Shown: positions 24,442 to 31,941 of the stretch, piece by piece
How positions within the stretch are numbered: position 1 is the first letter of the stretch
How the letters are laid out: each line of letters opens with the position of its first letter
NCBI GenBank assembly: GCA_963833985.1
Contig: CAWIAD010000001.1
Coordinates: forward strand, 416,001 to 480,000
Source of the DNA: an uncultured Planctomycetaceae bacterium
GTDB lineage: Bacteria > Planctomycetota > Planctomycetia > Isosphaerales > Isosphaeraceae
DNA length: 64,000 bases
Direction of reading: 5' to 3'
Notes under the pieces: generated by a model
The model's input: only the letters and a program-made list of their open reading frames with translations
Told to the model about the DNA's origin: nothing
Database searches by the model: none
Translations under genes and position numbers: made by a program

Positions 24442-24678
24442 TGGTGGCATCTCCCGGAGAGCGGCGAGCCGGGCGAAGAACCTTGCCAGCGGCCAATCCG
24501 TGGACGCGAGGCCCGCACGCGGCACTCATCTTGGAGCGATCTTCGCGGCCTGTCAACGCGACTGGGGCCGCGTGATCCCCCGGTCCAGAAGATGACCCGC
24601 AACCAGACGCGTGGCGATGCTTTCCCCGCGCGCTTCCCGAGCATGCTCCGAAAGGTTCCAGGCGCGCGGCGCATCGGA

Positions 24679-25060
24679 TCAGACCGGTGCGTACCTGGTC
24701 AGCCCTGGCACCCGATCAAAGTCGGCATCGTGGCTGGCAAGGTTTGTCAGCCCGTTGGCCTTCATGACTGCCACGACGATTGCGTCGTTAGTCAAGAGCC
24801 CGTCGATTGACTGACCACCGCCGCCGATACCACAAGTGGTGGGGCAATCGTGAGGACCTGAACGCCCATCTGCGGAATCCCCTGCAACGCAGACAGGTAG
24901 TGATGAAGTTGTTGTACATGCCCGGGATTCTGCTTGAGCCGGGCCACGATCTTGCTGGGCCAGCCGAACCGGATTGCAGCTTCAAGAGTGATCAACCTGT
25001 GGGCGACCTTGCCGAGAACCAGCGTCGAGGTGTCTCCCGAGATGTCCCCCAGTTCCAGTC
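24679..25060 (-). pseudogene. VapC/PIN toxin lacking its N-terminus, with an additional frameshift near 24799
   Basis: LELGDISGDTSTLVLGKVAHRL... then, in the shifted frame, LLTNDAIVVAVMKANGLTNLASHDADFDRVPGLTRYAPV*; no start codon or first catalytic Asp motif. Confidence 0.8.
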
Positions 25061-25266
25061 GGGATGGGATCGTCAAGCTCGGGCGACATTGCAAAATCGT
25101 CGGCCGCTTCTGAAGAGCCTGTCCAGCCCATCATGCCTGCGGTCCGCTCGGCCAGGGTGGGGCCGATGTGCACGGTGACCTGGACCCTCTGGTGTTCCCT
25201 GAGCGGCAGGGGCTGAGAGAGTTTCAGCGCGCCGTTCTCGTAAATGGCTTCAACGGTCACGGGCAT
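24982..25266 (-). CDS. AF2212/DUF104-like antitoxin, 3' end probably damaged
   Basis: MPVTVEAIYENGALKLSQPLPLREHQRVQVTV; AGGAG RBS; reads out of frame into the toxin remnant. Confidence 0.85.
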   Translation of the reverse strand: MPVTVEAIYENGALKLSQPLPLREHQRVQVTVHIGPTLAERTAGMMGWTGSSEAADDFAMSPELDDPIPTGTGGHLGRHLDAGSRQGRPQVDHS

Positions 25267-25377
25267 GGCCAGCGCTCCTGGAGTTCAACGGTTTCCGGTT
25301 GTGTGTTCTCGTCAGCAGGGTCCGAACCCCAATACCGTTGAAATAGCGAAAAGGTGAGTGCAGGCATAAGTTTGTCC

Positions 25378-25497
25378 CTCGTTCCCACGCTCCGCGTGGG
25401 AATGCCGTCTGCGACGCTCCGCGTCGATTGGGGCCGTGCCGAGGCTGGGAAATCCATGGGACGCCGAGCGTCCCGACCGGTGTTCCCACGCAGAGCG
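25378..25497. repeat. REP-like doublet inside the MITE; right arm split by the IS
   Basis: CTCGTTCCCACGCTCCGCGTGGGAATG and an inverted arm TGTTCCCACGCAGAGCG that resumes as TGGGAACAAG at 27088-97. Confidence 0.85.
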
Positions 25498-27078
25498 CTT
25501 GTCATTCCCGGAAAACTGCATGCATGCGTATTCAATTAGTGGTGTACATGTGCATTGATTCTCGCGCGCTCAAGCTTTGCTCCCCTTACGAGGAGCCGGA
25601 GCACCTTCATGCCGCGCCAGAGCGTGATCCAGCCGGGCATCCCGTCTCGTCGCCGGTTCATATGCCCACCGAGCCGCCCCAGGGCAAGCAACACGTCTGC
25701 CACGGTCTTGAGTCCACGCTCGACCGCCAGACCGAGCACCTCCAGCTCGGGCTCCTCCAGGCCAGTGCTTGCCGCGGGAGCTCCCGGGAAGCCCTTGCCG
25801 AGCTCGCGCAGATCCAGCAGCCGAAGCGCCACCACGCTCATCACGGCGATCGCAGCGAACAATCGGTTGCCCCGCTCCAGCTGCAAATCCTCAGCCTTCA
25901 TGCCCGTCTTGAGGCCCTTGTGAAACTCCTCGATCAGAAAGCGTGTGCCGTAGTCCATCACCACCATGATCGCAGCGCTGAAGCTCTCCGTCGGGCTGTC
26001 CGTGTAGAGCACCCATTCCAGCGGCGCGACGCCTTCAGGCGGGTCTTGCTCCCAGACCCGCACGAACCAGCCGTCGATCGGCTCGCCCGTGCCGGCCGCG
26101 CGGCCCGCACGCTCGGGTGCCCGCACGCGCACCGGACCACAACTGATCAGGAGCTTCGCGCGCGCGCGGCCTTACCATCGCGGCCACGCAGGTCCAGATA
26201 CATTCCCCCCACGGACGCCACGCCCACGATGTGCTCGAAGACCAGCCCGAGCCGCTTACCATCGGCCGGATTGAGCAGAATGCGATTTTGACTGACCCGG
26301 ATCACGAAACCGTGGCCTGCTGCGCGACAGGACTCCATGTACTCATGAATATCTGCTTCTCGATCGGCGACGCGCACCCAGCGGACCTCCGGGTTCTCTG
26401 GTGCCGGGCCAATCCGCTTGCCCGACTCGAGCCAGCGATCCGACTCCCGATCCCGGATCTGCCGTTGCCGCGATCCGGCCTGTTTCGGCGTGTCGGGATC
26501 CCGCGGGATGCGGATGAGGTATTGCTGGTCGGCGAGCCCCAGGATCGTGACCGGGGGCCGACGACCGCTCGCATCAGGTACGGGCGACGAGTCGGCACGC
26601 ATCGCAAGGATGGAGTGGAGGAGAAAGCCCTGCTGTCCCGGCTCCGAGTCACCAATCGGCCCAAGCCCGGGTATTGGCTGCTTGCGATGAGAGAACGAGG
26701 GAAACGTGGTGTCTTCGATGAGGAGATATCGCCCCGGTTTGCGGAGTTCGGCCATCACCAGTCGGCGGTGAGTCGCCTGGATCGCATCGGGGACCACCTC
26801 GCGTTCGTCGAGGAGGTCATAGGTCGCGTTGATGTCGTACTTGCGGGTGAACAACTCGGGGATCATCTTCCCGGGTTGCTCAGCGAGGGCCTCCGCAAAC
26901 GCCATGAGGCGATTCCTCCTGGTGCAATGGCCGAGCCTGATCCCGTCGAACTGCATCCGAGCCCATTGGGCGGGCGGGGACTGGTGGACTGACATCCCTG
27001 TGAACATAGTTGGCTCCATCCATGACCATGCTGGTAGAATCCAGCCAACCATGTTAACAAATTCTCGGGAATGACAAG
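25498..27078 (-). mobile_element. IS4-family insertion sequence, IS50/Tn5-like, 1581 bp
   Basis: TIR CTTGTCATTCCCG at both ends; 9-bp target duplication CGCAGAGCG (25489-97 / 27079-87). Confidence 0.93.
25536..27007 (-). CDS. IS4/Tn5-like DDE transposase (frameshift in a GC dinucleotide run near 26160)
   Basis: WARMQF...LG..RRNRL, IEDTT, GFLLHS, VADREADI, FVIR, PLEWVLYT, YGTRFLIEEFHKGLKTG, LGRLGGH, PGWITLWRG. Confidence 0.93.
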
Positions 27079-27403
27079 CGCAGAGCGTGGGAACAAGTCT
27101 CTTGCAAGCCTCTTCCCCCCTTTTTGGTAACGCTATTTCAACGGTATTGGTCCGAACCCGGAAGGTAAAACCGGGGACCCTTTTGCAAAAGCAGATCAGG
27201 AATTCTCCGCATTCGCTTCGCGTCTGGCGGGGCTGTCATTCATAGCGATGGCATTCTCATTATATCGGGAATCACAAGGACCGGATGCAAGATGGAAATG
27301 GAAGCGGTTCCCCTTGTCGACGTAAAACGGGCTCATCCCTCGCGGCTCGTGCCGCGTCAGGCTGAAGCCAACAGGATTCTCGCATCCGCTCGGTTCATGG
27401 GAC

Positions 27404-31375
<3,972 letters not shown>

Positions 31376-31540
31376 GATGCGACCTCCAAACAACGGAAAG
31401 GCGTTTCTTCCGGTTTCTGCTCGGGCCACAACAGAGAATAAGGAGCCGGTGGCGAAACGTTACAGCAGCCTGAAAAAAATCCACGACCCGACAGATGGCC
31501 GGGAAACCTTCCGATCGGGCCGGACGGGGCTGTCGTCGCT

Positions 31541-31941
31541 CTCGAAGGCAGGAAGACCATGGAACCACAGAGATCACAGAGAGCACGGAGAGATGACCAT
31601 GGACGAGAGGAGGAATGATCGACGACGAAAGTTCAACACTCTAAAAGTCTGGAGAAGACCATGGAACCACAGAGATCGCAGAGAGCATGGAGAGAAGACC
31701 ATGGTCGAGAGGAGAAATGATCGACGGCGAAAACTCAACACTCTTGAAGGCAGGAGAAAACCATGGAACCACAGAGATCGCAGAGAGCACGGAGAGAAGA
31801 CCATGGTCGAGAGGAGAAATGATCGACGGCGAAAACTCAACACTCTTGAAGGCAGGAAGACCATGGAACCACAGAGATCGCAGAGAGCACGGAGAGAGGA
31901 CCATGGACGAGAGAAGAGATGATCGACGGCGTAAATTCAAC
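31541..31941 (+). repeat. tandem array of four ~101-bp purine-rich units
   Basis: CCATGGAACCACAGAGA starts at 31557, 31659, 31761 and 31861. Confidence 0.93.

Follow-up and report, generated by a model that had tools for sequence, protein, structure and literature searches.

The window studied herein is a stretch of 64,000 nucleotides from an uncultured Planctomycetaceae bacterium, whose genome assembly (10.16 Mb in 2 contigs, GC content 65%, completeness 96%) is referred to below as the host genome. Its segment from 25320 to 27159 contains an IS that lies inside a REP doublet, which in turn lies inside a MITE. Outermost is a 10-bp target site duplication (TSD), GTCCGAACCC, present at 25320-25329 and again at 27150-27159; the duplicated target site of the family is symmetric, with a consensus of approximately GSCYTARGSC. 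Next come the outer TIRs of an IS4-subgroup MITE (25330-25348 on the plus strand and 27131-27149 on the minus strand), followed inward by the left subterminal arm (25349-25377, plus) and the right subterminal arm (27098-27130, minus). The left REP (25379-25425, plus) consists of an outer hairpin with the loop CGCTCCGCG and an inner GACGC hairpin, the latter being the target of an IS1182-family element in other copies. A spacer at 25426-25459 separates it from the right REP (minus), which runs from 25460 to the insertion point at 25497 and resumes at 27079-27097. The final 9 bases before the insertion point (25489-25497) and the first 9 bases after it (27079-27087) are the two copies of the inner duplication, CGCAGAGCG. 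Between them lies an IS50/Tn5-type IS of 1581 bp (25498-27078, minus), bounded by a perfect 13-bp inverted repeat, CTTGTCATTCCCG, at 25498-25510 and 27066-27078. Its transposase gene (25536-27052, minus) is broken into two reading frames by the loss of one base near 26164. All of the structural features in the original prediction, that is, perfect 19-bp outer TIRs with a 10-bp TSD, and in the right REP arm a 1581-bp IS with its own TIRs and a 9-bp TSD, were found base for base. Removal of the IS and one inner duplication leaves a MITE of the predicted size (1820 - 1581 - 9 = 230 bp), and IS-free copies elsewhere in the genome measure 227-238 bp. A repeat search reports an outer TIR of 20 nt because the near-palindromic TSD adds one C:G pair; the true TIR is 19 bp.

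The outer TIR has 80 matches in the host genome at up to 3 mismatches. Behind 79 of these ends lies a REP, and 66 of the 79 form 33 pairs. The paired copies carry an exact 10-bp direct repeat in 7 cases, a repeat of 10-12 bp with 1 mismatch in 5 more, a two-mismatch duplication in 10, and no recognizable duplication in the remaining 11, of which 2 are explained by an inversion. Accordingly, a TSD within 1 mismatch flanks 12/33 paired copies as opposed to 0/1056 mispaired-flank controls, and one within 2 mismatches flanks 22/33; the duplicated sequence varies from copy to copy. Full IS-free copies (n = 18, leaving out three wrongly oriented or non-member rows) are pairwise 80-96% alike, with a mean of 87%, so the family is old. 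The fold of an IS-free copy has a z score of -8.4, and none of 200 shuffles folded equally well. At 17 of 18 MITE sites, the shorter side has fewer than 100 open codons, a crude open-frame proxy for intergenic location. The outer element is thus short (230 bp), non-coding, bounded by a 19-bp TIR, and present in 33 paired copies, as befits a MITE, and with the empty copies and a parent-type IS (see below) its predicted assignment to the IS4 subgroup stands. The outer TIR is also present in 6 of 13 genomes of the same genus and in 10 of 40 relatives. No empty allele of the window site was found; a search of the genus with the left flank gave partial homologues of 71-88% identity with different DNA beyond. 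Nor was there any junction across the element in contigs from sequencing runs (best share 0.08), where only REP and IS pieces were covered.

Relatives contain autonomous elements (L012 and L023) of about 1485 bp that agree with the MITE in the first 17 bases of the left end. The L012 protein (461 aa) scores 61 bits against PF13006 (cut-off 25), 46.5 against PF01609 (cut-off 23), and 192.6 against NF033592 (cut-off 115). Such parent-type ISs were found in 8 of 251 genomes of the class, the host genome not being among them; they measure 1478-1490 bp, and 10-bp duplications of the same kind flank several of them. In the host genome, PF13006 gave 0 matches, the best tblastn match reached 24-34%, and a genome-wide scan for TIR pairs yielded other IS4-like elements alone, whose ends are GAATG and whose repeats measure 11 bp. 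A stretch of 82 bp there, with 94% identity, is a remnant of the parent's right end. As the host assembly contains scattered indels in repeats, the absence of the parent, and likewise of a RAYT, means "not found" at 96% completeness. The element at C2 1893821 was rejected as a parent, since it is another IS4-family element, located in another REP that is nested within a MITE copy. Of the two things for which the original prediction proposed a search, the empty copies of about 230 bp exist in the host genome and the autonomous parent type exists in relatives, but no parent was found in the host genome itself. The parent and a MITE family of the window type were not seen together in any one genome; one genome (G002) has the parent and a MITE with another cargo. 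According to the available part of a survey of the IS4 family, the IS4 subgroup has -AATR ends, direct repeats of 10-13 bp, and a length of 1400-1650 bp (PMC2266710, Table 1), with which the CAATA ends, the 10-bp repeats, and the parent length agree; the outer ends match only part of the WTW given there for positions 14-16. All 62 ends inspected, of MITEs and parents alike, have the TIR followed by AA at positions 22-23 and TT at positions 43-44, with a variable stretch in between. This pattern may mark a second, subterminal protein-binding site, in which case the functional end would comprise about 46 bp.

The REP, for its part, is a short extragenic palindrome which forms inverted doublets and stands free in many genomes. 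Its exact 27-base motif occurs in at least 131 metagenome stretches, and among the 80 that were fetched the outer TIR lay upstream in none. Two of these 80 loci (L241 and L278) have the REP on both sides of a RAYT gene scoring above the NF047646 cut-off. Homologues of this RAYT occur in 15 of 120 genomes of the family, where the REP lies within 1.5 kb in 18 of 19 loci, mostly on both sides, and the MITE TIR in 0/19. In the host genome, this RAYT was not found at E 1e-30, and generic Y1_Tnp genes adjoined the REP at 0/7 loci there and at 0/30 of those fetched from 107 matches in five relatives. Of the terminal tags that mark Di Nocera's super-families, GTAG and CGTC, the REP has no GTAG foot, and it was assigned to no named family. 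An Rfam search gave one weak CRISPR-repeat match, far below the gathering score, which was rejected. Three plasmid records gave partial matches. Within the host genome, 66 of 89 REP palindromes lie within 200 bp of a TIR with up to 3 mismatches versus 2/300 in the background, and 78/89 versus 7/300 do so when up to 6 mismatches are allowed. Most copies there therefore owe their place to an IS4-type event.

The same ends also enclose other REPs. One genome per species was scanned for CAATACCGTT-N185-215-AACGGTATTG, which corresponds to elements of 205-235 bp, a size favoring doublets. The scan gave 105 stretches; of the 80 returned, 40 came from 19 planctomycete genomes and 40 from others, and a duplication within 2 mismatches was present in 28/40 of the former versus 6/40 of the latter. 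The planctomycete interiors fall into unrelated groups, namely the window REP (15), a CCCTCTCCC type (11), a CCCCCCTT type (5), and several singletons. The CCCTCTCCC repeat amounts to 74 palindromes with 0 TIR matches in one genome (G004) and is TIR-enclosed in G002, where the parent IS is found. In the host genome, a second palindrome family is joined into two shells. That one outer element should be found with several unrelated hairpin families across the planctomycetes suggests a second way of REP spread. Capture intermediates, such as a parent IS bearing a REP immediately within one of its ends or a RAYT locus flanked by TIRs, were seen in 0/11 parent loci and 0/19 RAYT loci. Outside the phylum, a few records from Anaerolineae, Desulfococcaceae, and Chloroflexota have the same ends with perfect duplications.

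Seven full copies of the inner IS are present in the host genome, 98.8-99.5% alike to the window copy. Their reading frames are intact in 2, interrupted by a nonsense codon in 1 and by an extra base in 1, and frameshifted by a shared one-base deletion near 26164 in 3, including the window copy. The frameshift in the latter reflects either a broken member copy or a sequencing error; a contig of a relative is in frame near 26161, which fits either reading. The transposase of an intact sister copy scores 254 bits against NF033590 (cut-off 160), matches the Tn5 transposase structure 1mus_A with an E value of 3.5e-36, and aligns with Tn5 through the motifs IEDTT, VADRE, and YGTRFLIEEFHKGLK (DDE and YREK). 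PF14706 scores above its cut-off and PF02281 just below. The CT ends and the 9-bp repeat agree with the CW ends and 8-9-bp repeats of the IS50 subgroup, and the single unbroken ORF of that subgroup is lacking in the window copy owing to the frameshift. Profile, structure match, and ends thus bear out the predicted IS50-like nature of the inner element. A phylum-wide protein search found the inner transposase in 1 other genome of 300 at E 1e-60, and no relatives of it were found among viral contigs.

This IS is strict in its choice of target. When the flanks of all copies were inspected, as had been proposed, the position within the REP proved identical in 7/7, the IS abutting the central 9-mer of the REP hairpin in six TIR-bounded shells and one damaged shell. 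The 9-bp repeat is perfect in 2/7 of these copies and at 4/8 sites in relatives, the others keeping a 9-bp geometry. Close relatives of the IS (67-91% DNA identity) occupy 8 sites in four other genomes, and 7 of the 8 are at the same position of the same REP, just one of the 7 (L058) being inside a MITE. The eighth (L056) is another palindrome, in which equally spaced TTCCC/GGGAA arms surround an unrelated, perfectly duplicated 9-mer. In the host genome, there are 85 TTCCC-N11-GGGAA sites, of which 69 carry the REP loop. Since the relatives reach the same REP mostly without a MITE, the target is the REP and not the MITE. The original prediction that MITE-borne REPs serve as landing sites therefore holds as regards the REP, which is targeted in 7/7, but the MITE is not itself the target. 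More distant IS50-like relatives (65-73% identity; L038, L040, L059, and L060) end outside this REP, and one further end in G062 (L395) is at a non-REP site; the targeting rule therefore belongs to a clade. A symmetric readout of the REP arms by a transposase dimer is the simplest reading.

Other ISs use the same repeat. An IS1182-family element of 1648 bp (NF033551, 324.6 bits; cut-off 270) has 5 full copies in the host genome, all of which (5/5) are at the tip of the inner GACGC hairpin, with a perfect 3-bp duplication in 3/5; one solo end lies in a free REP. Its relatives are found at the outer hairpin tip in G058, and others at short palindromes or unrelated sites. A single copy of an element which, from a reading of its protein, we take to be IS66-like lies in a REP with an 8-bp duplication. 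In the MITE copy at C2 721573-725043, the IS50 and IS1182 elements both lie within an intact outer duplication.

The filled copies of the MITE are not alike. The inner IS is located in the right REP (the window), in the left REP (C2 723396), or between the REPs, and in both orientations. Almost all IS-free copies have CGCTCCGCG as the left loop and CGCAGAGCG as the right. Four filled copies are without the 100-bp middle, and in two of these the left loop is on one side of the IS and the right loop on the other; of the other two, one has the same core flipped and one has loops that are exact inverses. A 17.5-kb inversion between IS copies is evident from exchanged outer duplications, and two of the four short shells were read after it had been undone. 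Such short shells make up 4/6 of the filled copies versus 5/27 of the IS-free ones (Fisher p = 0.034, from counts made by hand). One copy in G063 has the middle on both sides of the IS. The odd inner duplications likely arose from a second local event, either a hop into the neighboring REP together with recombination or an adjacent deletion. The available text on ISRm22 ascribes its imperfect repeats to recombination or adjacent deletion (PMC1525189). The mismatched loops might also stem from insertion into a break while REPs recombine with each other, to go by the accessible part of a recent preprint (bioRxiv 10.1101/2024.06.02.596822).

Two other explanations of the filled copies have to be weighed. 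It was originally suggested that the whole 1.8-kb unit could move as one, and an IS-filled MITE might indeed have been transposed as a composite of 1.7-1.8 kb via its outer TIRs: its size resembles that of the parent IS, the window copy has perfect outer TIRs and a perfect outer duplication, and the short-shell architecture is common to four copies. Nonetheless, we regard this as very improbable. Among the six filled copies bounded by TIRs, shell identity is 80-92%, in the arms the same spread as in IS-free copies; the shells thus differ by 8-20%, as against about 1% for the ISs that they hold; three IS1182-filled shells that were compared are likewise 83-87% alike, and their IS1182 copies 99.9%. 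Besides, no identical filled unit was found at two or more sites with separate outer duplications, nor did the search of the host genome yield a cognate outer transposase. As the shells have diverged, the ISs are about 1% apart, and the insertion points and orientations differ among copies, each insertion was therefore a separate event into an old shell. Past joint moves are largely refuted; joint movement is still mechanically possible if a parent returns. The mismatched inner duplications (5/7 copies) might, on the other hand, be assembly errors or plain flank swaps and not local second events. The sequence is known from the assembly alone, one reciprocal exchange is evident at C2 1665905 and 1686738, two G063 copies read as exchanged, and this is how Tobes and Pareja explained the imperfect repeats of ISRm22, as far as the available text goes (PMC1525189). 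However, the copy at C2 5958632-5960351 has an intact outer duplication (12 bp, 1 mismatch), yet its middle is absent and its loops are unlike; once the inversion is undone, the outer duplications of both partners match but the loops are still unlike; and short shells are in excess among filled copies. Swaps or misassembly may account for part of the pattern, not all of it, and as a full explanation they appear unlikely.

A stronger contender concerns the cargo. The differing REPs may represent separate insertions into pre-existing empty mini-MITEs, retained by chance, in which case shell and cargo would be functionally unrelated. In keeping with this, there is a 105-bp CAATACCGTT element (L137) that lacks a REP doublet, the interiors are not REPs in 3/19 genomes, and the scanned size range of 205-235 bp suits REP doublets in the first place. 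Against it, the interior folds strongly (z <= -3) in 35/40 planctomycete elements, from 17/19 genomes, versus 4/40 others, a count in which the 35 include L137, where two empty 105-bp units lie in tandem, and in which two CCCCCCTT copies do not reach the threshold. Moreover, the cargo starts at a nearly constant distance from each end, and two genomes have two cargo types each. We give chance capture somewhat less than an even chance. Less probable is the possibility that the inner transposase recognizes an extruded hairpin or cruciform and not the sequence of the duplex arms. Every target of the close relatives is a foldable palindrome, IS1182 and IS66 elements also sit at hairpin centers of the same repeat, and the element folds strongly. 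But the arms of the target are conserved in sequence and spacing, and the central 9-mer may be unrelated and non-complementary, as in L056; other abundant hairpin families of the host genome (109 and 146 motif matches) hold 0/7 copies; and in IS4-family elements the left and right arms of the target are reported to be conserved, according to the available text of PMC2266710. Structure readout is thus doubtful, and arm readout by a dimer is preferred.

Taken together, a scheme of three events, namely REP capture, MITE spread, and later independent IS insertions, appears to be the best explanation of the locus, with a probability of roughly 80%. At the outset, a RAYT-type, REPIN-like REP doublet would have been placed between two IS4-subgroup ends of about 46 bp to give the 230-bp MITE, by whatever route of capture. 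The DDE transposase of a parent would then have spread the MITE in trans, generating 10-bp duplications at sites resembling GSCYTARGSC, so long ago that the copies have since drifted to about 87% identity; the parent would later have been lost from the host assembly. Much later, the IS50/Tn5-type element would have inserted independently into several MITE copies, its transposase dimer presumably reading the TTCCC-N11-GGGAA arms and cutting 9 bp apart across the central 9 bases. It would target the REP wherever present, most REPs of that family in the host genome happening to be MITE-borne, so that the window locus would be a passive end product and not a composite transposon. The same capture step would likewise have taken place with several unrelated REP families in Planctomycetota.

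More tentatively, and with odds that we would place clearly below even, these observations may be joined into a broader reading. IS4-subgroup ends of about 46 bp, each made up of the TIR and an AA-N19-TT subterminal site, might be a general vehicle for REP doublets, through which unrelated REPIN families repeatedly exchanged RAYT-driven spread for cut-and-paste movement of the DDE type. A folded interior might aid movement or tolerance, the shared landing pad might be divided among IS50, IS1182, and IS66 elements, and the IS50-type enzyme might be a Tn5 homologue with natural specificity for a symmetric site of 21 bp. The multiplication of REPs and REPINs is not settled and is usually attributed to RAYTs. 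REP doublets with DDE footprints where the cognate RAYT is not found would represent a second, directly testable route of spread. Tn5 serves as a standard tool and as the model for transposases with weak selectivity; a homologue found at one 21-bp symmetric site in 14/15 natural insertions, with intact copies present, lends itself to the study of target capture.

Some parts of this arrangement resemble systems already described. Mobile insertion cassettes of the IS231 subgroup (MIC231) have IS4-family ends with foreign DNA that replaces the transposase or lies beside it. The window element shares such ends, whereas the cargo consists of genes in MIC231 and of a non-coding mobile repeat here. 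IS1111, the invader in the system closest in architecture, is a member of the IS110 family. In Coxiella burnetii, QMITE2 is a MITE of about 190 bp with TIRs and variable direct repeats, inside which a REP is a hot spot for IS1111 (20/21 copies), and the same three-layer nesting of an IS in a REP in a MITE is thus found there (PMC5896051, available text); the QMITE2/IS1111 nesting also appears in the accessible part of PMC10969869. The REP of QMITE2 is of the GTAG type and no parent transposase is named for it in the available text (PMC5896051), whereas a parent of the IS4 subgroup was matched here. The invader also differs, being of the IS50/Tn5 type with a 9-bp duplication, and there are three IS families on the repeat and unrelated REP cargos.

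As to the inner IS, ISRm22 is an IS4-family element with all copies at one position on the symmetry axis of a REP, some with imperfect repeats (PMC1525189, available text). It is assigned to subgroup IS4Sa (PMC2266710) and has 6-bp repeats (PMC1525189), whereas the present IS is a Tn5 homologue with 9-bp repeats. Neither the IS50 subgroup nor IS1182 is among the REP-targeting families listed in the accessible part of Tobes and Pareja 2006 (PMC1525189). With its CT ends, 9-bp repeat, and YREK motif, the inner IS resembles the IS50 subgroup of De Palmenaer 2008 as given in the available text (PMC2266710); at 1581 bp, it is slightly longer than the 1350-1550 bp stated there, and its targeting is strict. 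REP-carrying non-autonomous forms are not mentioned in the accessible text of that account of the IS4 family. The doublet itself is similar to REPINs, in that an inverted REP pair with a variable spacer is found and the REP flanks an NF047646 RAYT on both sides. In the available portions of the reports (PMC3733652, PMC6006769, and PMC3184786), the movement of REPINs is attributed to HUH tyrosine transposases. By contrast, the doublet here is bounded by DDE-type TIRs and 10-bp duplications, and a RAYT was not found in the host genome. A literature search, largely of open-access main text, found no description of IS4-ended MITEs with interchangeable REP cargo or, in the same scope, of a REP-specific IS50-subgroup element, and no published account was found of IS4 ends enclosing at least three unrelated REP doublets across Planctomycetota. 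Given QMITE2 and ISRm22, the nesting itself is ordinary; the recurring REP-carrying IS4 shell and the strict targeting by a Tn5-type element are what set this locus apart.

The REP families of the host genome (G000, contigs C1 and C2) are partitioned among its insertion sequences. An IS4-family element that is unlike those of the nested locus, and that carries CATAGCGTCCAACTT ends, is present in about nine copies (C2:1893821-1895400 and eight further sites), none of them in the window. The majority of these copies lie, with long duplications, within a GTAG-type REP that is distinct from the REP of the MITE, and one occupies a GTAG doublet that is itself located inside a decayed copy of the REP-carrying MITE. 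Two more IS4-like families of the same genome, approximately 1480 and 1842 bp in length, have GAATG ends and 11-bp duplications; the former is found at C1:1891575-1893053 and seven other sites, and the latter as a pair (C2:496594-498435 and C2:4493344-4495185), whose targets are near-palindromic.

A second small repeat element with a GGCAGACAGGAATGCCTGCC-type doublet (C1:256529-256994, C2:3041827-3042153, and about seven related sites) occurs free in several places of the host genome and is incorporated into two MITE shells. In a related genome (locus L013, G007:C62), the CCCTCTCCC repeat of a MITE is interrupted by an element that, on reading of its sequence, is putatively IS66-like, and the outer end of that MITE is the same as that of the MITE in the window.

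At C2:1665905-1686738 of the host genome, approximately 17.5 kb is inverted between two copies of the IS50-like element in opposite orientations. Right MITE ends flank one of these elements on both sides, left MITE ends flank the other, and swapping the outer duplications between the two restores matching pairs. Because the five IS1182-like copies of this genome, which are 99.9% alike, bear different single-base frameshifts in three cases, its repeats appear to retain long-read indel errors.

The nested element is situated immediately upstream of a decayed toxin-antitoxin pair (window 24657-25266, minus strand), which is composed of an AF2212-like antitoxin gene (PF01954) followed by a truncated and frameshifted PIN-domain gene, an intact homologue of which, at locus L404, matches PF01850. 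On its other side, the nested element is downstream (3' of the stop codon) of a gene for a 1341-residue, putatively Ser/Thr-kinase-like protein (27404-31429, minus strand), which contains numerous near-identical, possibly TPR-like repeats of 34 residues. Tandem repeats of ~90-100 bp, with repetitive open reading frames on both strands, occupy positions 31330-31870.

Mini-elements of ~100 bp with the CAATACCGTT sequence occur as tandem pairs, with a 10-bp repeat between the units, in locus L137, from its 61-bp region onward, and in locus L100. Those of a Gemmatales record are empty, and those of a Desulfococcaceae record each contain a single GTAG-type palindrome.
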